Source: Alphaproteobacteria bacterium
GTDB lineage: Bacteria > Pseudomonadota > Alphaproteobacteria > GCA-2731375
DNA length: 64,000 nucleotides
Assembly (NCBI GenBank): GCA_965232515.1
Contig: CBDDPY010000002.1
Span: 3,360,001-3,424,000 of the forward strand
Direction: 5' to 3'
In this document: piece by piece, positions 2,678-12,515 of the stretch
Layout of the letters: every line of letters starts with the position of its first letter
Numbering within the stretch: position 1 is the first letter of the stretch
The notes under the pieces: model-generated
What the model was told of the DNA's origin: nothing
What the model saw: only the letters and a program-made list of their open reading frames with translations
Database searches by the model: none
Program-made: the position numbers and the translations under genes

Positions 2678-2926
2678 CATTCTGCGCGTGTCGCAGAGAA
2701 AGTTCCGAAAATTAGAGATAATTCAAAGAATAAACTTCCATATATTGAAGTAAACATATCTGTGCGCTCACCCTCGCATTAACATAATTTTCAGCCGACC
2801 AACCATATATTCAATCATGACGGCAGGTTTTCTACAAATCTGTCGAAAAAGACAAAATTTTACATAAGTTATCCAATCGGGTGATGGTCGAATGGCGGGA
2901 AATTGGGGGAGACATGGTGGAATGTC

Positions 2927-3466
2927 ATGCTCTCGAGCTACGGACACCCCTTCGAGGCAAAGCAGCTAAGGCCGCTTAACCTTGGTCCCCTCGACGTGCT
3001 GGTCGTGGACGACAATCCGCAGATCCGCGAACTGCTCGTCACCATCCTGGACGCCCTGCACGTCAAGCACATCCGCGAAGCCACGGACGGCGACGCCGGC
3101 TTCAAAGAGGTCTGCGCCTCGCCACCGGACATCGTCCTGACCGACTGGGTCATGGAACCGGTCAGCGGCGTCGAACTGGTCCGGCGCATCCGACAGTCCG
3201 AGAAGAGCCCGAACCCGTTCCTGCCCGTGGTCATGATCACCAGTTCGTGCAGCTCGACCGAGGTGATCGAAGCGCGCGATGCCGGCGTCAGCGAGTTCCT
3301 GGTCAAGCCGATCACGCCGAAAGCGCTGTACGAACGCATCGTCTCGCTGGTCGAGCGGCCGCGCCCGTTCATCCGCACCAAGTCCTTCTTCGGACCCTGC
3401 CGGCGGCAGGATCGGCTGGCGGGCTATGGCGGCCCGGAACGGCGGCGCGGCGGCACCGATCGCTGA
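2927..3466 (+). CDS. CheY-like receiver protein with Arg-rich C-terminal tail (Cle-like)
   Basis: VVDDN, LTDWVM, MIT and LVKP receiver motifs; tail FFGPCRR...YGGPERRR. Confidence 0.85.
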   Translation: MLSSYGHPFEAKQLRPLNLGPLDVLVVDDNPQIRELLVTILDALHVKHIREATDGDAGFKEVCASPPDIVLTDWVMEPVSGVELVRRIRQSEKSPNPFLPVVMITSSCSSTEVIEARDAGVSEFLVKPITPKALYERIVSLVERPRPFIRTKSFFGPCRRQDRLAGYGGPERRRGGTDR

Positions 3467-3502
3467 TCAGACCGCGAGACGAACGTTCAAGGGACGGGAA
3501 TC

Positions 3503-4021
3503 ATGGGCAAGCCAGCAGCGAAATCCGCCGCGCCGCCGCGTGGCAAACCGGGCGACTTCGAGGAGATCGTGCCGCCGAACCTGCTGTTGAAAAAGCTGGG
3601 ACCCGGACGCGGCGTCGATCCGGATCTGCTGATCGAGGCCGAAACCGCCGTCTATGCCTTGCAGGCGAAGTTCGAAAAACGCTTCATGACCGAGATGAAC
3701 GCGCTGCAGGACACCTTCAACGAGATGAAGCTGAACAACGATTTCGACATTCAGCACGTCGCCAACACGGTGCGGGAATTGACCGGCGAAAGCGGCACCT
3801 ACGGCTATCCGCTGGTCAGCCGCTTCGGCCGGTCGTTGTGCGTGTTCATGGACGACATGACGAACCTCGATGCCGAGCAGGTCGGGTTGATCGACGCCCA
3901 TCTCGATGCCATGCGCGCCGTGGTCGGCGGCAAGGTGCGCGGCGACGGCGGCAAGATGGGTCAGCAGCTCGTGCACGAGCTCGAAATGGTGACGTCGCGC
4001 ATGTCGATCACCCTGCCCTGA
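3503..4021 (+). CDS. Hpt-fold phosphotransfer-like protein, canonical His apparently absent
   Basis: VRELTGESGTYGYPLVSRFGRSLC resembles AHDLKGxGGTFGYPL Hpt proteins that accompany such receivers. Confidence 0.7.
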   Translation: MGKPAAKSAAPPRGKPGDFEEIVPPNLLLKKLGPGRGVDPDLLIEAETAVYALQAKFEKRFMTEMNALQDTFNEMKLNNDFDIQHVANTVRELTGESGTYGYPLVSRFGRSLCVFMDDMTNLDAEQVGLIDAHLDAMRAVVGGKVRGDGGKMGQQLVHELEMVTSRMSITLP

Positions 4022-4084
4022 CGGCGCCGCCGTCCATCGAATTCCACTAGGCGACAAGAGGGCGAACCGGGTAGCCTGCGGCCC

Positions 4085-5563
4085 ATGTCGCAGGAACCAC
4101 CTCACAGCGTATCGGAAACAGGGCTCGCACGCCTCGCCCGGCGGATCGCACGCGATCTGGACTATCTGAACTATCCGCCCCGGAACTGGGTCGTGCCGCA
4201 CGATGACGGGCACGGCGGCCAGCTCGTTGACGTCGCCATCGTTGGCGGCGGCATGTGCGGCCTGACGCTCGCCTTCGCGTTGCGGCGTGTCGGCGTCGGC
4301 AACATCCGCCTGATCGACAGCCAGCCGGACGGTCAGGAAGGCCCCTGGGTGACCTATGCCCGCATGGCCACCCTGCGCTCGCCCAAGCACCTGGTCGGCC
4401 CGGCGCTCGACCTGCCCAGCCTCACCTTCCGGGCCTGGTACGAGGCGCAGTTCGGCGTCGATGCCTGGGAGGCGCTCGGCCGCATCGACCGGACGATGTG
4501 GATGGACTATCTGCGCTGGTACCGCCGGGTCCTGGACCTGCCGGTCGAGAACGGCGTGACGATGACATCGCTTGCGTCCGAAGGCGACGCCATCCGCCTT
4601 GATCTCGAAAGGGCGAGCGGCCCCGACGTGCTGCGGGCCCGCAAAGTGGTGCTGGCCACAGGACGCGACGGGCTGGGCGGTCCCTATACGCCGGCCGTCG
4701 CCGCGGGCCTGCCGGCCGATCGCTGCAGCCACTCGGCCGACGACATCGATTTCGCGGCGCTTGCCGGCAGGCAGGTCGCGGTGCTGGGCGGCGGCGCCTC
4801 GGCCTGCGACAACGCCGGCGTCGCGCTCGAGATGGGCGCCGCCGAGGTGCGGCAGTTCGTGCGCCGCGACGACCTGCCGCGCGTCAACAAATCCAAGGGC
4901 GCGGTCTATGCCGGCTATGCGCTGGCGTTTCCGCACCTGGACGACGCCTGGCGCTGGCGCTTTCTGCATTACGTGCTGGACGAACAGGTGCCGCCGCCGC
5001 GCGAATCCATGCTGCGGCTCTCACGGCACGCCAACTATCACCTGCAGCTCGGCTGCCCCTGGCGGCGGGCCGAAGCGGACGGCGACGGCATCGCCATCGA
5101 CACACCCAAGGGCGTGTTTCACGCCGACCACGCGATCATCGGCACCGGCTTCGACGTCGACATCGGCCGTCGGCCCGAGCTGGCGGCGCTCGCAGATCAC
5201 GTGCTGCTCTGGCAGGACCGGGTCGCCATCGACGATGGCGAACTGTCCCGTCAGTTCGGCCGGTTTCCCTATCTGGGTCCGGACTTCGCTTTCCTGCCGC
5301 GCGCGCCCGACGGCCCAGGCTGGCTCGCCAACGTGCATTGCTTCAACTATGCCTCGACGCTGAGCCACGGCCCCGTCAGCGGCGATATCCCGCTGCTCGG
5401 GTTCGGTGCCGAGCGCCTCGCCGGCGGGGTCGCCGCCAGTTTCTTCGACGCGGACAAGCAGGCCCATTTCGCCGACCTGCAGGCCTTCGACGAACCGGAA
5501 CTGCTGGGCGACGAATGGTCGGTCGACGACGCTGACCCGCCGCAGCGCCGACAACAATCCTGA
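4085..5563 (+). CDS. FAD/NAD(P)-dependent monooxygenase, HpyO (urate hydroxylase)-like
   Basis: GGGMCG FAD motif, EGPWVTYARMATLRSPK, second GGGASA motif; substrate not established. Confidence 0.8.
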   Translation: MSQEPPHSVSETGLARLARRIARDLDYLNYPPRNWVVPHDDGHGGQLVDVAIVGGGMCGLTLAFALRRVGVGNIRLIDSQPDGQEGPWVTYARMATLRSPKHLVGPALDLPSLTFRAWYEAQFGVDAWEALGRIDRTMWMDYLRWYRRVLDLPVENGVTMTSLASEGDAIRLDLERASGPDVLRARKVVLATGRDGLGGPYTPAVAAGLPADRCSHSADDIDFAALAGRQVAVLGGGASACDNAGVALEMGAAEVRQFVRRDDLPRVNKSKGAVYAGYALAFPHLDDAWRWRFLHYVLDEQVPPPRESMLRLSRHANYHLQLGCPWRRAEADGDGIAIDTPKGVFHADHAIIGTGFDVDIGRRPELAALADHVLLWQDRVAIDDGELSRQFGRFPYLGPDFAFLPRAPDGPGWLANVHCFNYASTLSHGPVSGDIPLLGFGAERLAGGVAASFFDADKQAHFADLQAFDEPELLGDEWSVDDADPPQRRQQS

Positions 5564-6481
5564 TCAGTCGGCGGCGAGCCCGCCGAAACGTTCCCGGAAG
5601 TAGGCCGCGGCCTCGGGCAACGGCCCCTCGGCCGTTTCCGCCGCGGCCATCAGGTGTTCTTCGGCCGGTAGGGCCGTGAGGCGGTAGAGGTTGCGGCAGA
5701 GCGCGCGGGCGGGCCGGCCCGGCCAGTCGACCGGCAACAGCTCGTCCGGCAGCATGGGATCGCGCAACAGCACCCGCCGATAGTCGTGCACCAGCAGCGT
5801 TCGGACCAGGAAGCAACTCCGCGGGTCCGGCGCCGACGCCTCGCCCAAGGCCTGGTAGATCGGCCGGAAGTGATCGACGAAGGCCGCGTAGTCGGCGGCG
5901 AGCCGGTCGAGATCCCAGGCGCCACGCACCAGCGCCTGCAGCGCCGGCAGCTGGTTCGTCGCCTGCGCCGTCATCACCACCAGCCGGTCGGTCAGACCCT
6001 GATCCTGGAAGGTTTGGGTCAACGCCTCCATGTCCGGCGCCGGATGCGCCAGCACGGTCGGCGCGAACGTGCCGAATCCCAGCCATTGCAGCTCGCGCCG
6101 CACGGCCTCGCGCGCCGCACTGTCGAGCTCGCCGGCCAGGACCAGCCGCCACTGGCCGTCCCACGGCGCCCGCGGCGGCGCGTAGATCCGCCGGTGCGCC
6201 GCCTCGAAGCGCTGGCGGCCGCTTTCGGTCAGGCTGTAATAGCTGCGCCGGCCGAGCTGACGCGCGGCCAGCCAGTCGTCGGCCACCAGCCGGAACACGG
6301 CCGTGCGCACCATGCGCTCGTTCAGGCCCAGCGGCGCGACCAGCCGGATCAGACTGCCAAGCCAGACCGAACCGCCATGCGGCAGGATGGCGTCGCCGAA
6401 CACCGTGACGATGACCGACTTCCCCTTCAAGTCGATCTGCCGCCTGAGCTTGTCGATCAATCCGTCGAGCCGCCGGGTCAT
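5564..6481 (-). CDS. paaX: Phenylacetate degradation repressor PaaX
   Basis: KSVIVTVFGD, ERMVRTAVFRL, WDGQW, LLVHDYRRVLLRDPMLPDELLP. Confidence 0.93.
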   Translation of the reverse strand: MTRRLDGLIDKLRRQIDLKGKSVIVTVFGDAILPHGGSVWLGSLIRLVAPLGLNERMVRTAVFRLVADDWLAARQLGRRSYYSLTESGRQRFEAAHRRIYAPPRAPWDGQWRLVLAGELDSAAREAVRRELQWLGFGTFAPTVLAHPAPDMEALTQTFQDQGLTDRLVVMTAQATNQLPALQALVRGAWDLDRLAADYAAFVDHFRPIYQALGEASAPDPRSCFLVRTLLVHDYRRVLLRDPMLPDELLPVDWPGRPARALCRNLYRLTALPAEEHLMAAAETAEGPLPEAAAYFRERFGGLAAD

Positions 6482-6592
6482 GGCGCGCTTCGGCCTCCTG
6501 TTGGTCGATTCAGTCTGTCGCCGGACATAGTTCACACCCCTGGCCTTGTCCACGGCCGCCAGAGCGGCGCAATGGCGTTGACAGATCGTAAA

Positions 6593-6631
6593 TGATACAT
6601 ATACTACGATCTATCCTATAAATTGGTATCA
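6593..6631. promoter_or_regulatory. PaaX-type operator TGATAC-N27-GTATCA
   Basis: Inverted hexamers 27 nt apart between divergent paaX and the paaA-like gene; same architecture as known PaaX operators. Confidence 0.7.
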
Positions 6632-6646
6632 TATTGGAGAGCCACG

Positions 6647-7459
6647 ATGCCGGATTGGAAGACTTACGACAAGGGCGATCCAATGCCCGAGGATTATCGG
6701 AAGCTGCTGATCCATCTGATGACCTTTCAGGCCGATTCCGAATATGCCGGCGCCCAGCGCGTCGCCGAAAACATGCGCTTCGCGCCAAGGCCGGAGGAGG
6801 CCTACCGGCTGTCGAAGAAGGTCATGGAGGAGATGGGCCACGGCTACTATGTCTGGGCGCTGTTGCAGGATCTCGGCGTCGATGTCGACGCCCGGCTGCA
6901 GGAACTGGTCCAGCATCCCGACAACCCGGATCCGAAGAAGGTCAACGTGATCAACGGTTTCCGCAAGGAGAACTGGTCGCAGTGGTTCGAGTGCTGGGAA
7001 GACGTGGCGCTGTTCTCGACCGTCGTCACGCCGGCCGCGGTGGCGTTTCTGGGTCAATACCGCGAGTGTTCCTACAAGCCCTGGGCCCGCGTCAACGTGC
7101 GCATTCACAAGGAAGAGCACGGCCATCTGGCGTTCGGCGTCTGGGCGTCCAAGCGCTGTATCGAGTTCGGCGGCGAGGAGACGCGCGCCTTCATGCAGAC
7201 CCGCATTCCGAAATTCATGCGCGTCGGCCTCGGCTTCTACGGCCGGCCGTCGACCGGCGGTGCGAAGTCCGCGATGTTCGACAAGTATTACGAATACGGC
7301 ATCAAGGTGAAGAAGCCTGAAGAGCTTCAGGCCGAGTATCTCGAATTGCTTGAGTCGCGGTTGGCCGAGGTCGGCCTGGAAGTGCCCGCCGACATCGAAG
7401 CCGACTACGACATGCGCATGGGCTACGAGGCCGACGAGCCGGCCACGGCGGCACAGTAG
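6647..7459 (+). CDS. PaaA/PaaC-family ferritin-like protein, divergent
   Basis: GDPMPEDYRK, ADSE, EEMGH, CSYKPW, EEHGH; GGAGAG RBS. Confidence 0.8.
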   Translation: MPDWKTYDKGDPMPEDYRKLLIHLMTFQADSEYAGAQRVAENMRFAPRPEEAYRLSKKVMEEMGHGYYVWALLQDLGVDVDARLQELVQHPDNPDPKKVNVINGFRKENWSQWFECWEDVALFSTVVTPAAVAFLGQYRECSYKPWARVNVRIHKEEHGHLAFGVWASKRCIEFGGEETRAFMQTRIPKFMRVGLGFYGRPSTGGAKSAMFDKYYEYGIKVKKPEELQAEYLELLESRLAEVGLEVPADIEADYDMRMGYEADEPATAAQ

Positions 7460-7470
7460 GAGGACGCGCG

Positions 7471-7881
7471 ATGATGCGTGAAGAAGGCGTCGCCGAGCTG
7501 CCGAACCGGCTGTTCGCCGACGGCCGCAGCATCCTGGCCCGCTTCGGCTATCGGCACGTCGCGAACGGCGCCGAACGCGATGACTGGGCCGCCATGTGGG
7601 ACCTGCTGCGGCCGGACTTCGCAACGGCGGAACGGCCGGACATCGCAACCTACGACGTGCTCTCCGAGGAGGCGCAATCGCTGGCCCGCGCCTACATGCG
7701 CGTCCGGCTGGAGGCCGACCGAAATCTGGAGGCCTGCGAGCGGCTGCATGTACAGCTCTATGCCGACGGTATCGACAAGGACGTCGTCGAGGACTACGCC
7801 GTCGTCCGCGACGCCTATGAAGACAGCGTCGAGGCCTTCGGCGCCGCACGCGAAAAACTGGCGCCGCACCTGTCCCGGTAG
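7471..7881 (+). CDS. Hypothetical acidic helical protein, co-transcribed with the paaA-like gene
   Basis: GGAGGA RBS, 11-nt gap, GC3-rich codons, followed by a terminator. Confidence 0.7.
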   Translation: MMREEGVAELPNRLFADGRSILARFGYRHVANGAERDDWAAMWDLLRPDFATAERPDIATYDVLSEEAQSLARAYMRVRLEADRNLEACERLHVQLYADGIDKDVVEDYAVVRDAYEDSVEAFGAAREKLAPHLSR

Positions 7882-7905
7882 GTGTTCGTCACAACACCTG
7901 AATTC

Positions 7906-7933
7906 GGCCCCGCACGTCGGGGCCTTTTCTTTT
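7906..7933 (+). terminator. Intrinsic terminator
   Basis: GGCCCCG-cacgt-CGGGGCC stem followed by TTTTCTTTT. Confidence 0.8.
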
Positions 7934-7953
7934 GTGCAATTAGGCCGGCCGGC

Positions 7954-8736
7954 TCAGACCGCGCCGGCGGTGGCGACTGGCGCCTCAAGTTCCAACGCCG
8001 CCAGACGTGTCTGCATCTCGCTTTCCCAACGCGCCAGCAGGTCGGCGTTGCCGTATTGCCGCAGGCCATAGCTGCGATAGAGCTCGAACCGCCGCGAATC
8101 CAGCCGGCCGAACGTGGCCGCGACCCGCGGATGCCAGTAGTTGACCGCCGCCTGCGCCGCCAGTCGGTCGCCGGTGCGCTCGATCGCCTGGCGCAGGCCG
8201 GTCTCGCCCAACGCGGCGTGTTCGGCCTCGCGCGGCACCACGTCACGCATCACGGTCGCGAGCGGCGCATAAGAGCACGCCGCCAGCTCGGCCAACTGGA
8301 TCGACGAGGCGATGCCCATGGCCATGTTCATGGTCACCGCGTCCAGCCAGCCCTGGACCGGATAGTGGAAGACGTTCAAGCGTTTGTCGCCGGCAATGCG
8401 GCGGGTGCCGAGATCGAGCTCGCGGTTCAGCCGCGCCGCCCAGGGGTGCGAACGCAGATACAGCGCCGGGTTGACGCCGAAACGTTCCAGCAGCGCCAGC
8501 ACGGCCTCCGCATGGGCGAACTTTTCACTCACCATGCGGGCGGCGATGCTGCGTTCGCGCAGGCCCGGGGCGCTGTTGATGTGATCGACGAAGCCAGCGG
8601 CGCCCGCGAGCTCCGAATCCACGAACACGACCATCAGTCGCATCAACTCGCCGCGATAGCCGGGCGACAGCTCGTCGTCCGCATCCAACCGGCCGCCGCC
8701 GCCTATGCGCTCGATCATGTCCGCGTCGGTCACCAT
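7954..8736 (-). CDS. Second PaaA/PaaC-family protein with degenerate metal site
   Basis: YRGELMRLM, VDSELAGAAG, EKFAH, CSYAPL, REAEH. Confidence 0.8.
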   Translation of the reverse strand: MVTDADMIERIGGGGRLDADDELSPGYRGELMRLMVVFVDSELAGAAGFVDHINSAPGLRERSIAARMVSEKFAHAEAVLALLERFGVNPALYLRSHPWAARLNRELDLGTRRIAGDKRLNVFHYPVQGWLDAVTMNMAMGIASSIQLAELAACSYAPLATVMRDVVPREAEHAALGETGLRQAIERTGDRLAAQAAVNYWHPRVAATFGRLDSRRFELYRSYGLRQYGNADLLARWESEMQTRLAALELEAPVATAGAV

Positions 8737-8764
8737 CGCAGGATACTCCCGAGTCGTCAGAAAG

Positions 8765-8803
8765 AGATACAAGAATAGACAATTTATTGTTCGATTGGTA
8801 TCA
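8765..8803. promoter_or_regulatory. Second PaaX-type operator AGATAC-N27-GTATCA
   Basis: Same spacing as 6593-6631; shares the 14-mer ATTGGTATCATATT (6622-6635 and 8794-8807). Confidence 0.7.
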
Positions 8804-8853
8804 TATTTTCCGTAAGATTGGATTTGCAGCGGACCGAGCGAGAACGGCGCGCC

Positions 8854-9303
8854 ATGGTCGATATCGTGATTTTCGTCGGCACCGAGTCGGGCAACGCGGC
8901 GATGGTTGCCGACACGCTGCGCGACGAACTGGGTGACAACGGCCACGCGATCGATGTGATCGAGGACTTCGAGGCGGACCCGCCCGCCCTCGAGGCTGAC
9001 AAAGTCGTACTCTTGTGCACGGCGACGCATGGGCTCGGCGAACTGCCGGACAACATCATGCCGCTGCACGACCGGCTGACGCAGGACCGGCCCGATCTCA
9101 CCGGCATCCGCTATGGCGTTATCGCCCTTGGCGACCAGACCTACAGCGACACCTTCTGCAATGCCGGCCGCCAGATGGACACGCTGTTCGCCGAGCTCGG
9201 CGGCGCCCGCGTCGGCGAACGGCTGGAGATCGACGCCTGCACCCAGCCGCTGCCCGACGAGGAGGCCATCGACTGGGCCAAGGAGTGGGTGGCGATGTTA
9301 TAG
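8854..9303 (+). CDS. Short-chain flavodoxin (MioC/YqcA-like)
   Basis: GTESGNA FMN loop, TATHGLGELPDN, ALGDQTY..FCNAG. Confidence 0.92.
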   Translation: MVDIVIFVGTESGNAAMVADTLRDELGDNGHAIDVIEDFEADPPALEADKVVLLCTATHGLGELPDNIMPLHDRLTQDRPDLTGIRYGVIALGDQTYSDTFCNAGRQMDTLFAELGGARVGERLEIDACTQPLPDEEAIDWAKEWVAML

Positions 9304-9365
9304 CGGCGACTTTTTCGCCGGACGGCGTATGCTAGGGCACCGTCGAATCGATGCCGGGTTGGGGC

Positions 9366-12300
9366 ATGATTTTCGCGCACGAGCCGCCGGCTGAAACGCC
9401 GCCGCGGGCCGCCATATCGGCGCTTTATCGCAAGGACGAAACCGCCTGCCTGCAGGCGCTGCTGGCCGAGCTCGATCTGGCCGACGAGCAGCTCGCCGGC
9501 ATCGACGCGCGGGCGCGTTCGCTGGTGGCGGAGGTGCGCCGGCGGCGCATCGGCGAAGGCGGCATCGACGCCTTCATGCACGAGTACGACCTCGACAGCC
9601 GCGAGGGCGTGGTGCTGATGTGCCTGGCGGAAGCGCTGCTGCGCATTCCCGATGCCGAGACCGCCGACCGACTAATCCGTGACAAGCTGGCCGATGCCGA
9701 CTGGGACGCCCATCTCGGCCGGTCGGAATCGCTGTTCGTCAATGCCTCGACCTGGGCGCTGATGCTGACCGGCCGGGTGATCCGCCTCGGAAGCCTGCGG
9801 GAAGACGATCTCGGCGCCCTGCTGCGGCGGCTGGTGGCGCGCAGCGGCGAGCCGGTGATCCGCCAGGCCGTGGTCCAGGCCATGCGCATCCTGGGGCGGC
9901 AGTTCGTCCTGGGGCGCACCATCGCCGAAGCGCTGAAGCGCGCCGACGAGGCCGAAACGAACGGCTATCGGCATTCCTACGACATGCTGGGCGAGGCCGC
10001 GAAGACCGCCGCCGACGCCGAGCGCTACGCACGGGCCTACGAATCGGCGATCGCCGCCATCGGCAGGCACGCGAACGGTCGCGGCCCGATCGACGGTCCC
10101 GGCATCTCGGTCAAGCTGTCGGCCCTGCATCCGCGCTACGAGCTGGCGCAGATGTCGCGGGTGACGGACGAATTGCGGCCGCGCCTGCTGGCGCTCGCCG
10201 TCGCCGCGAAGGACGCCGGCATCGGCTTCACCGTCGACGCCGAGGAGGCAGACCGCCTCGACCCCTCGCTCGATCTGTTCGACGCGCTGGCGACCGACCC
10301 GGCGCTTGCCGGCTGGGACGGCCTCGGCCTCGCGGTGCAGGCCTATCAGAAACGCGCGCCGGCGGTGATCGACTGGCTCGCCGACCTCGCGCGGCGCGGT
10401 AAGCGGCGCTTGATGGTCCGGCTGGTCAAAGGGGCGTACTGGGACACCGAGATCAAACGCAGCCAGGAAGGCGGCTTCGCGGGCTATCCGGTGTTCACGC
10501 GCAAGCTCAACACCGATGTTTCCTACCTCGCCTGCGCCAAGCGGCTGCTGGCGGACGAACAGGCCTTCTATCCGCAGTTCGCCACCCACAACGCGCACAC
10601 GCTCGCCGCCGTGGTCGAGATGGCCGGCAACCGGCGTGACTTCGAGTTCCAGCGCCTGCACGGCATGGGTGATGCGCTCTACGCGCAGGTGGTCGGCGGC
10701 GGTCTTGGCGTCGACTGCCGGATTTACGCGCCCGTCGGCAGCCACGAGGACCTGTTGGCCTATCTGGTGCGCCGGTTGCTCGAAAACGGCGCCAACACAT
10801 CGTTCGTCAACCGCATCGTCGACGAAAAGGCGCCGATCGACGACATCGTCGCCGACCCCATCGCCAAGGCCCGCGCGCTCGACGCGGCGCCGCATCCGCG
10901 CATCCCGCTACCGTCCCGGATCTTTGGCGACGAGCGGCGCAATTCCGTCGGCCTGGACCTGAGCGACATCACGGTGCTGCGACCGCTGGCATCGGAGATC
11001 AACGCCGCGGTGGACGGCAATTGGATGGCGGCGCCATTGGTGGCCGGCGAAACCCAACCAGGCCAGGTCGCCGACGTCACCGATCCGTCGGACCGCCGTC
11101 GGATCGTCGGCGCCGTCGTCGACGCCACGGCTGAGGATGCCGCCGCCGCGATGTCGGCCGCTGCTGCAGCGGCGCCGGCTTGGGACGCGACGCCGGCCGA
11201 TACGCGCGCCGCCTGCCTCGACCGCATGGCCGACATTCTGGAACGCGATATGGCGCGCTTCATGGCGATGGCCGTGCGCGAGGCCGGCAAGACCCTGCCC
11301 GACGCCGTGGCGGAGGTGCGTGAGGCTATTGATTTTTGCCGGTATTACGCGGCCCGTGCCCGGGCCGATTTCGCCGCGCCGCTGGCGCTGCCGGGCCCGA
11401 CCGGTGAGCGCAACGAGATCGCCCTGCACGGCCGCGGCGTCTTCGTCTGCATCAGCCCGTGGAACTTTCCGCTGGCGATCTTCTGCGGTCAGGTGACGGC
11501 GGCGCTGGCCGCCGGCAACGCCGTGATCGCCAAGCCGGCCGAACAGACGCCGCTGATCGCGCACGCCGCGGTCTCGGCGCTCTACGAAGCCGGCGTGCCC
11601 GCCGAGGCCCTGCAATTGCTGCCCGGTCCGGGCGAGGTCGTCGGCGCTGCGTTGATCGCCGATCCCCGGCTGGCCGGTGTCGCCTTCACCGGCTCGACCG
11701 AGACCGCGGCCATCATCAACCGCACGCTCGCCGCGCGCGACGGACCGATCGTGCCGCTGATCGCCGAAACCGGCGGCCAGAACGCCATGCTGGTGGATTC
11801 ATCGGCCTTGCCCGAGCAGGTGGTGACGGACACCGTCGCCTCGGCCTTCCAGAGCGCCGGCCAGCGCTGTTCGGCGCTGCGCGTATTGTTTTTGCAGGAC
11901 GATGTCGCCGACAAGACTATCGACATGCTGGCCGGCGCCATGGACGAGCTGAGTGTCGGCGACCCCGCCTTGCTGCGCACCGACGTCGGCCCGGTGATCG
12001 ACAATGACGCCAGGCAGATGCTAGAAGACCACGCCGCACGCATGGACCGCGAAGCCACACTCATCCGGCAGGTCGAGATGGGGGAGGAAACCGCACACGG
12101 CACCTTCGTCGCGCCGCGCGCCTATGAGATCGACAGCCTGGACTGGCTGCACGGCGAGGTGTTCGGACCCGTCCTACACATCGTGCGCTATCAACAGTCC
12201 CACCTCGAGGCGGTGATCGACGCCATCAACGGCACCGGCTTCGGCCTAACGCTGGGCATTCACAGCCGCATCGACGCCACGGTCGAGTACATCCATGCGC

Positions 12301-12515
12301 GCCTGCGCGTCGGCAACACCTATGTCAACCGCAACCAGATCGGCGCGGTGGTCGGCGTGCAGCCGTTCGGCGGCGAAGGCCTGTCCGGCACCGGCCCCAA
12401 GGCCGGCGGTCCACGTTATCTGCACCGCTTCGCGACCGAGCGCACGCTGTCCATCGACACCACGGCGCAGGGCGGCAATGCCGCCTTAATGTCACTGGAC
12501 GACAGCGGCGACTGA
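9366..12515 (+). CDS. putA: Bifunctional proline dehydrogenase / P5C dehydrogenase
   Basis: LMCLAEALLRIPD, RLVKGAYWD, FATHN, ETGGQN, SAGQRCSA, GTGPKAGGP. Confidence 0.97.
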   Translation: MIFAHEPPAETPPRAAISALYRKDETACLQALLAELDLADEQLAGIDARARSLVAEVRRRRIGEGGIDAFMHEYDLDSREGVVLMCLAEALLRIPDAETADRLIRDKLADADWDAHLGRSESLFVNASTWALMLTGRVIRLGSLREDDLGALLRRLVARSGEPVIRQAVVQAMRILGRQFVLGRTIAEALKRADEAETNGYRHSYDMLGEAAKTAADAERYARAYESAIAAIGRHANGRGPIDGPGISVKLSALHPRYELAQMSRVTDELRPRLLALAVAAKDAGIGFTVDAEEADRLDPSLDLFDALATDPALAGWDGLGLAVQAYQKRAPAVIDWLADLARRGKRRLMVRLVKGAYWDTEIKRSQEGGFAGYPVFTRKLNTDVSYLACAKRLLADEQAFYPQFATHNAHTLAAVVEMAGNRRDFEFQRLHGMGDALYAQVVGGGLGVDCRIYAPVGSHEDLLAYLVRRLLENGANTSFVNRIVDEKAPIDDIVADPIAKARALDAAPHPRIPLPSRIFGDERRNSVGLDLSDITVLRPLASEINAAVDGNWMAAPLVAGETQPGQVADVTDPSDRRRIVGAVVDATAEDAAAAMSAAAAAAPAWDATPADTRAACLDRMADILERDMARFMAMAVREAGKTLPDAVAEVREAIDFCRYYAARARADFAAPLALPGPTGERNEIALHGRGVFVCISPWNFPLAIFCGQVTAALAAGNAVIAKPAEQTPLIAHAAVSALYEAGVPAEALQLLPGPGEVVGAALIADPRLAGVAFTGSTETAAIINRTLAARDGPIVPLIAETGGQNAMLVDSSALPEQVVTDTVASAFQSAGQRCSALRVLFLQDDVADKTIDMLAGAMDELSVGDPALLRTDVGPVIDNDARQMLEDHAARMDREATLIRQVEMGEETAHGTFVAPRAYEIDSLDWLHGEVFGPVLHIVRYQQSHLEAVIDAINGTGFGLTLGIHSRIDATVEYIHARLRVGNTYVNRNQIGAVVGVQPFGGEGLSGTGPKAGGPRYLHRFATERTLSIDTTAQGGNAALMSLDDSGD

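Follow-up and report, generated by a model that had tools for sequence, protein, structure and literature searches.

A PaaX-controlled ferritin-fold module with a dedicated flavodoxin as a candidate variant phenylacetyl-CoA epoxidase in an alphaproteobacterium

Which oxygenase does a bacterium place under the control of PaaX when the epoxidase components PaaB, PaaD and PaaE are not encoded nearby? The question is raised by a stretch of 64,000 nucleotides, here called the window, from an alphaproteobacterium of the GTDB lineage GCA-2731375 (assembly GCA_965232515.1, contig CBDDPY010000002.1, positions 3,360,001 to 3,424,000). It contains a module of five genes: paaX, a PaaA-like gene that we label ferA, a gene for a protein of 136 amino acids (u136), a second PaaA-like gene that we label ferB, and a flavodoxin gene (Table 1). 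A preliminary description, made from the letters alone, had placed these five genes where the list of open reading frames (ORFs) also has them, and had reported the window to be free of paaB, paaD, paaE, paaG, paaK and paaZ, an absence that we confirm. Its proposal of a distinct aryl-CoA oxygenase fed by flavodoxin stands, but the substrate that it left unspecified, or the auxiliary epoxide-handling role that it offered instead, gives way to a more definite assignment, as the genes that surround it in relatives indicate the step of the phenylacetyl-CoA epoxidase itself. Judging from this context, the module is probably a variant phenylacetyl-CoA ring 1,2-epoxidase that replaces PaaABCDE.

The available text of PMC2653477 describes paaABCDE as the relatively invariable heart of the phenylacetate pathway, and that of PMC13186573 proposes that PaaA and PaaC serve as markers for it in genomes. 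The module is like the PaaABC(D)E system of E. coli and Pseudomonas (structures 3PW1, 3PVR and 4IIT) in that both large subunits belong to PF05138, a catalytic subunit with the full diiron motif is accompanied by a paralogue, control by PaaX is predicted to act through a hexamer-N27-hexamer operator, and the genes take the same pathway position, beside paaG, paaN and paaK. It is unlike that system in that FerA and FerB form clades of their own, with scores of 86 and 55 bits where PaaA requires 280, and in that PaaB, PaaD and PaaE are absent, with U136, a flavodoxin and an FprA-type reductase found instead.

FerA matches PF05138 with 93.4 bits (cut-off 28.5) and reaches 85.7 bits against the PaaA equivalog family TIGR02156, where the cut-off is 280; its closest solved relatives are the PaaA chains 4IIT and 3PVR (E about 1e-14). 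The diiron motif Glu...EXXH...EXXH is kept as E32, E62-x-x-H65 and E157-x-x-H160 and is invariant in 16/16 sequences. The family is tight, with 59-85% identity across Alpha-, Beta- and Gammaproteobacteria, and the names given to its members in the source records are generic only. The sequence GGAG stands 7 nucleotides before the ferA ATG.

FerB also belongs to PF05138 (66.2 bits, cut-off 28.5) and lies far below the TIGR02156 cut-off (54.6 vs 280 bits). It retains the helix-1 Glu, the helix-2 His and the helix-4 EXXH, and carries Lys or Arg at the helix-2 ligand position where PaaA and FerA keep Glu; Lys72 occupies this position in at least 90% of 18 sequences. In the same alignment most of these ligand residues are missing from PaaC; FerB, unlike PaaC, keeps most ligands, and it resembles PaaA more. 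The FerB model (predicted local distance difference test, pLDDT, 88.9) has its best fold matches in PaaA chains (template modelling, TM, score 0.80), with PaaC chains at 0.69. Among solved structures the closest by sequence are SSO1313 (4MUD, E 2.5e-10) and PaaA. An in-frame TGA read as selenocysteine in FerB was considered and rejected, as tblastn of six among the many flagged loci shows no internal stop; the idea was dropped because the flag arises from match edges.

A quick maximum-likelihood tree of 39 sequences resolves FerA, FerB, PaaA and PaaC as four separate clades on long stems, each with a Shimodaira-Hasegawa approximate likelihood ratio test (SH-aLRT) support of 99-100, and the FerB clade does not group with PaaC. 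The preliminary description had noted that its proposal would fall if the proteins belonged to ordinary PaaA and PaaC clades and worked with a remote PaaBE; on this tree they stand outside those clades.

The gene neighbourhood is conserved well beyond the source bacterium. We examined 80 related FerA loci with 8-kb flanks and found a U136 homologue directly after FerA in all 80 and a divergent paaX beside FerA in 67. Downstream of U136 lie components of a Liv-type transporter (substrate-binding protein in 35 loci, permeases in 28 and 27, ATPases in 30), and the loci further include a metallo-beta-lactamase (MBL)-fold protein (20/80) and a PaaK-like ligase (11/80). The tight five-gene layout of the window is unusual, because just 6/80 loci have both FerB and flavodoxin inside the 8-kb flanks of FerA.

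Genome-wide counts were made for 50 of the 80 loci, chosen before counting with a preference for long contigs, the other 30 being dropped. Both canonical PaaA (at least 280 bits) and PaaB are absent from 43 of these 50 genomes, yet PaaG exceeds its cut-off in 49/50 and PaaN in 39/50, including 32 of the 43 without canonical PaaA. At least two sub-cut-off PF05138-type genes are present in 48/50. In 44 of 49 genomes such a FerB-type gene is found upstream of paaG, within 3 kb and on the same strand; in 21/49 the two are direct neighbours.

A Terasakiella genome is the clearest example of the arrangement. Canonical PaaA and PaaB are absent from it, and one strand carries FerB followed by PaaF-like (351 bits), PaaG (417), PaaH (674), PaaI (146), a PcaF/PaaJ-type thiolase (757) and PaaK (681), while the divergent strand carries the flavodoxin and, directly after it, PaaN (844 bits) and a PaaY-like gene (307). 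About 8 kb away stand an FprA-like reductase gene and paaX, divergent from FerA, U136, an ATP-binding cassette (ABC) transporter and an MBL-fold gene. All paa functions are thus present in this Terasakiella genome bar PaaABCDE, and the module genes occupy its place.

Predicted regulation ties the two halves of the module together. PaaX, a GntR-type repressor, is clearly assigned (TIGR02277 316.1 bits vs a cut-off of 264.55, with Pfam PaaX, PaaX_M and PaaX_C all present) and is the single PaaX that the genome encodes. The preliminary description had seen matching operators at both promoters, and the core GATAC-N27-GTATC is indeed found at O1, between paaX and ferA, and at O2, between ferB and the flavodoxin gene. 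The window thus holds two copies vs 0.01 expected, a count that 0/100 shuffles reached, and the whole genome of 7.39 Mb has no further exact match with the N27 spacing. The left half-site of O1 lies inside the spacer of the ferA-u136 promoter, and the right half-site of O2 overlaps the -10 element of the flavodoxin promoter. The E. coli PaaX site is given in the available text of PMC9493321 as TGATTC(N27)GAATCA; O1 has the same architecture, with one base different per half-site.

In relatives, the operator motif is found upstream of FerA in 59/80 loci, as an exact copy in 23 and with a single mismatch in 36; the other 21 have no such site. With at most one mismatch it also occurs in the FerB-flavodoxin intergenic region or upstream of FerB in 12/18 loci, and four of the six FerB loci without it (L038, L046, L053 and L058) are also without paaX beside FerA. 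Exact GATAC-N27/28-GTATC sites stand between divergent FerB and flavodoxin in five other genomic places, in four genomes. These results extend the predicted PaaX regulon to a flavodoxin.

The flavodoxin is a confident PF00258 member (98.9 bits vs a cut-off of 25) that falls below the cut-offs of the equivalogs MioC and PRK08105 (NF005989, 143 vs 160 bits; the other, 125 vs 158). Wherever the upstream DNA was readable, in 18/18 loci, it is divergent from FerB, at 54-68% identity. The preliminary description had held its idea refutable if this linkage were neither conserved nor co-regulated; conservation is complete in these loci, and the operator upstream of FerB in 12 of them agrees with co-regulation. 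A flavoprotein of about 440 amino acids lies behind paaX in 50/80 related loci. Over residues 5-417 its Terasakiella member matches M. tuberculosis FprA (1LQT, E 1.2e-74) and adrenodoxin reductase (1CJC, 5.4e-72), because of which we assign the paaX-linked flavoprotein to the NADPH:ferredoxin/flavodoxin-reductase type. The source genome has an unlinked FprA-type homologue, 48-50% identical (G000:C2:1960986-1962266), at which no AT-rich operator site was found with up to two mismatches. The flavin-containing monooxygenase (FMO)-like flavoprotein encoded next to the module was considered as its reductase or as a further member and rejected, having a counterpart in 0/80 related loci.

U136 matched no Pfam or NCBIfam family, and its homologues are all named 'hypothetical'. 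Its model (pLDDT 84) consists of two short helices and a long helical hairpin, for which a Foldseek search of the PDB returned generic helical hairpins and nothing at E<=0.001; the protein atlas held unnamed clusters only, with scores of at most 0.84. The possibility of a diverged PaaB was rejected, at an hhalign probability of 0.5%. Modelled together, FerA and U136 gave values of 0.88, 0.87 and 0.88 for the interaction prediction score from aligned errors (ipSAE), the best of three controls reaching 0.00, with at least 90% contact agreement between runs and a partner pLDDT of at least 83. The mark used for ipSAE is reached by 58/80 solved complexes and 2/110 mismatched pairs, counts that hold only roughly here, where our own alignments were used. 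The modelled interface joins FerA residues 36-91, which cover the invariant stretch 46-62, to the U136 hairpin. As U136 belongs to no known family, the score is unlikely to stem from a solved complex that the predictor had learned. The model supports the binding of U136 to FerA.

Several observations weigh against the epoxidase assignment. FerA has Thr at the position aligned to the Asp of the PaaA motif "LVDGAA", a residue that we take to be a metal ligand. Seven of the 50 FerA genomes also hold canonical PaaA and PaaB, and in four of these seven the full paaABCDE operon was confirmed; in Caenispirillum the canonical and the FerA/FerB-type sets share one cluster. Two Azospirillum genomes have FerA and no FerB-type match. 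At the level of the class, PaaG (E<=1e-100) was present in 48 of 301 genomes sampled: 23 of these have canonical PaaA and 15 sub-cut-off matches only, lying beside paaG in 8 of the 15 by coordinates read by eye, and the remaining 10 have no TIGR02156-type match at E<=1e-12. In the source genome itself, neither PaaN nor PaaZ was found, their best scores being 59 and 118 bits, the PaaG-like protein scores 321 bits, below its cut-off of 345, and no operator was detected at the paaF/G/I/K cluster in a search for AT-rich sites with up to two mismatches.

The Caenispirillum cluster (L097, G002:C1:2862001-2881000) has paaABCDE about 3 kb from a unit in which flavodoxin is divergent from FerB-paaG, with an operator between flavodoxin and FerB. 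The presence of both sets in one genome fits redundancy, and it also fits a different or auxiliary reaction. Because 10 of the 48 PaaG-positive genomes are without a PaaA-type gene, PaaG alone is not a strict marker of the epoxidase. These ten genomes are G083, G087, G129, G179, G223, G259, G263, G271, G324 and G372; two were inspected, G129 with PaaG-PaaK and G087 with PaaF-PaaG-PaaJ, neither with a PaaA-type gene. Either PaaG has another role in the ten, or yet another oxygenase serves there.

The module could accordingly be read as a PaaX-regulated oxygenase for some other reaction, either the hydroxylation or epoxidation of a related aryl-CoA (e.g. a substituted phenylacetyl-CoA) or an auxiliary epoxide-handling or deoxygenating step beside a true epoxidase. 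The canonical set in 7/50 FerA genomes, the long branches that part FerA and FerB from PaaA, the lack of PaaN and PaaZ in the source genome, and pathway parts that can evidently serve otherwise in PaaG-positive genomes without a PaaA-type gene would all suit such a role. Nevertheless, the 43 FerA genomes without canonical PaaA hold no other epoxidase candidate, even though PaaG and PaaN, whose substrates derive from the epoxide, are found in most FerA genomes. FerB, moreover, stands at the head of the catabolic operon in 44/49 genomes, and no second conserved aryl-CoA ligase was seen, the sole ligase cluster being the PaaK-like one. We consider a different reaction rather unlikely.

It is also conceivable that FerA-U136 and FerB belong to two separate enzymes, FerB with flavodoxin being the epoxidase and FerA-U136, by paaX and the ABC transporter, being tied to uptake or sensing. 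Their loci are usually distinct, the fold of FerB is nearer to PaaA than to PaaC, and the two Azospirillum genomes have the one without the other. Such a division is improbable, however: at the ligand Glu kept in PaaA, FerA and the third PF05138 paralogue of the source genome, it is FerB that has Lys or Arg, whereas the FerA motifs are complete. FerA and FerB co-occur in 48/50 genomes, and the same operator is found at both. FerA and FerB are therefore more readily seen as the predicted catalytic and modified subunits of one candidate epoxidase.

How the source bacterium itself fits this picture is less straightforward. Canonical PaaB gave neither a PF06243 nor a tblastn match in the genome, canonical PaaC gave no tblastn match, and the best TIGR02156 score genome-wide, 98-103 bits vs the cut-off of 280, belongs to the third paralogue. 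For canonical PaaD and PaaE tblastn returned weak matches only, elsewhere in the genome (53-83 bits). The suggestion of the preliminary description that a canonical paa operon could lie elsewhere in the genome was not borne out, as only paaF-like, paaG-like, paaI and paaK genes were found there; neither is there a distant PaaB- or PaaE-type partner with which FerA and FerB could work, the other part of the refuting case that it had named. The paaF/G/I/K cluster adjoins a Liv-type ABC transporter and lies 1.67 Mb from the module. The genome also keeps an MBL-fold homologue at 60% identity. Because PaaN and PaaZ are missing and the PaaG-like score is below cut-off, a complete pathway is not visible in this genome; it is 96% complete, so a gene may be missing from it.

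Within the source's own order, any TIGR02156-type match occurs in 7/33 genomes, two of which carry matches of 75-80 bits, and three matches occur in the source genome alone. Because only these 7 genomes show a PaaA-type match, acquisition of the module by transfer in the source lineage is suggested. The module might then be a horizontally acquired remnant without a working pathway, and the missing PaaN and PaaZ, the few matches in the order, and the atypical layout, with FerB and flavodoxin beside FerA and far from paaG and paaK, would be in keeping with this. We hold a remnant to be very improbable, since none of the five reading frames is broken, their G+C at third codon positions (GC3) is high, and the promoters, both operators and the terminator are intact as well. 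The genome retains PaaK, PaaI, PaaG-like, PaaF-like, MBL-fold and FprA-type homologues, and at its degree of completeness a gene could have been missed.

Other routes for aromatic compounds are encoded in the same genome. BoxC (916 bits) and BoxB (861 bits) are genuine (locus L096, G000:C2:2136041-2139114), because of which we assign an aerobic benzoyl-CoA epoxide pathway to the organism. The third PF05138 gene (238 amino acids, 97-103 bits to PaaA) lies in a separate cluster (L095, G000:C2:4284718-4296000) with a MarR regulator, a BenC-like Fer2/FAD/NAD reductase, a short-chain dehydrogenase/reductase and a gentisate 1,2-dioxygenase (584 bits), and further with an FAA-family hydrolase, a PaaK-like ligase and a thioesterase. 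This cluster resembles a route to gentisate by way of an aryl-CoA hydroxylase, and similar paralogues of 85-105 bits occur in several relatives. Contigs C3 (5516 bp) and C4 (10862 bp) of the assembly, with a G+C of 0.46 and 0.42 vs 0.65 in the main contigs, are probably foreign or contaminant pieces.

Table 1. Features of the module, its flanks and the distant paa cluster (window positions, except C2 coordinates of the genome)
Feature	Position	Strand	Remarks
FMO/lysine-N-hydroxylase-like flavoprotein gene	4085-5563	+	492 amino acids
paaX	5564-6481	-	likely ATG start at 6481; open frame extends to GTG at 6553
Sigma-70-like promoter of ferA-u136	6578-6605	+	TTGACA, 16 nucleotides, TATACT; 11/12 consensus positions
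PaaX-type operator O1 (predicted)	6593-6631		TGATAC-N27-GTATCA; core GATAC-N27-GTATC at 6594-6630
ferA (our label)	6647-7459	+	PaaA-like ferritin-fold diiron subunit, 270 amino acids; predicted catalytic subunit
u136	7471-7881	+	small helical protein, 136 amino acids; predicted FerA partner
Intrinsic-terminator-like hairpin and T-run	7906-7934 (hairpin 7906-7924)	+	seven G-C pairs, then TTTTCTTTT
ferB (our label)	7954-8736	-	PaaA-like ferritin-fold subunit, 260 amino acids, altered metal site; predicted non-catalytic or modified partner
PaaX-type operator O2 (predicted)	8765-8803		AGATAC-N27-GTATCA; core GATAC-N27-GTATC at 8766-8802
Sigma-70-like promoter of flavodoxin gene	8776-8804	+	TAGACA, 17 nucleotides, TG-TATCAT; 10/12 consensus positions
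Flavodoxin gene	8854-9303	+	short-chain, MioC-like, 149 amino acids; predicted electron donor to the oxygenase
PutA gene	9351-12515		flank of the module
paaF/G/I/K cluster	C2:1696879-1700390		PaaF-like 337 bits (cut-off 371), PaaG-like 321 (345), PaaI 140 (over cut-off), PaaK 713 (over cut-off)

The terminator-like hairpin sits between the convergent u136 and ferB. The FMO-like gene and paaX are convergent with zero spacing, one ending exactly at the end of the other, and upstream of the FMO-like gene (2903-4021, + strand) lie a response-regulator-like ORF of 187 amino acids and an ORF of 172 amino acids. Neither the FMO-like gene nor PutA accompanies the module in relatives. Parts of positions 4000-10000 are covered, at a flat depth of 2-6, by contigs 95-100% alike from RNA libraries (runs X4, X6 and X7), whereas the poly-A run X21 gave no reads there; these data speak neither for nor against transcription. 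Runs X4 and X7 are RNA-seq libraries labelled as another organism (organism B) that contain contigs 95-99% alike to the same positions, and the species label of the poly-A libraries is also that of the best DNA holders. It seems that a close relative of the source bacterium accompanies eukaryote samples.

Among the systems already known, BoxAB, the benzoyl-CoA 2,3-epoxidase, likewise acts on an aryl-CoA as a diiron epoxidase; it shares the wider fold, and its reductase is separate. The relation of FerB to BoxB is weak (TIGR03225 23.5 bits, cut-off 499; 3PER, E 2e-4); BoxB has about 470 amino acids, FerB only 260, and BoxA is an Fe-S flavoprotein. SSO1313 of Sulfolobus (4MUD), the best solved sequence match of FerB, has a TM score of 0.74 to the FerB model. 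Unlike FerB, it is an archaeal protein, of 235 amino acids, titled 'ring oxydation complex/phenylacetic acid degradation-like protein'. In class Ib ribonucleotide reductase, the flavodoxin-like NrdI serves the ferritin-fold dimetal protein NrdF directly, and the NrdF2:NrdI entry 8J4X is a weak fold match to the FerB model, at rank 44. NrdF differs in being a radical-generating subunit, not an aryl-CoA oxygenase, and shows no sequence relationship past the fold.

The available text of PMC13186573 also recognizes a category of paa clusters that have PaaA/PaaC-type genes and are without PaaB, PaaD and PaaE, which it reports from Bacillota, Halobacteria and a small number of further classes, with none in Betaproteobacteria. 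The module is unlike this category as described there: the main text has no occurrence of 'flavodoxin', and its available parts mention no U136-type subunit, no FprA-type reductase and no split of FerA/FerB from PaaA/PaaC. Our literature search, which did not cover subscription journals, found no work joining PaaX, PaaA or the epoxidase with a flavodoxin, and none naming such PaaA-like paralogues. This probable substitution of the epoxidase, found in many bacteria, is apparently not yet described.

In the mechanism that we propose, FerA would replace PaaA as the diiron catalytic subunit, binding phenylacetyl-CoA and O2 and yielding the ring 1,2-epoxide, and its paralogue FerB, the metal site of which is modified, would be the partner in place of PaaC. 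U136 would be a new small subunit clamped on FerA helices 1-2, its role analogous to that of PaaB, to which it is unrelated. Electrons would pass from NADPH through the FprA/adrenodoxin-reductase-type flavoprotein and the flavodoxin to FerA. This flavodoxin chain would take the place of PaaE, a flavin adenine dinucleotide (FAD)/2Fe-2S reductase, would contain no iron-sulfur cluster and would not need PaaD. The Pfam domain of PaaD is of the Fe-S-assembly type according to the available text of PMC13186573, and the absence of PaaD would be explained because the predicted chain is without an iron-sulfur cluster. PaaX may repress both divergent promoters through TGATAC-N27-GTATCA, and may be released by phenylacetyl-CoA, made by PaaK. 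That a chain of flavin mononucleotide (FMN) and FAD only is an adaptation to microoxic, denitrifying or iron-poor habitats is pure conjecture.

In summary, we have identified a PaaX-controlled set of FerA, U136, FerB and flavodoxin whose relatives, in 43/50 genomes, accompany a paa pathway that looks complete in other respects and in which both the oxygenase set and the electron supply are different. There is, in our estimate, an even chance that FerA, U136 and FerB, served by a flavodoxin of their own and a reductase of the FprA type, represent a second, undescribed, iron-sulfur-free class of phenylacetyl-CoA epoxidase built on a new small subunit, and that this class is the prevailing form of the enzyme in many Rhodospirillales, Rhodocyclales and Oceanospirillales-type bacteria. 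If so, U136 would be a new subunit family with a testable binding surface, and the two classes would offer a natural comparison for the construction and reduction of diiron aryl-CoA epoxidases. More importantly, surveys that rely on canonical PaaA, PaaC or PaaB as markers would overlook or wrongly label a considerable fraction of phenylacetate degraders, and the potential for phenylacetate, styrene and phenylalanine degradation in genomes and metagenomes would have to be reread.

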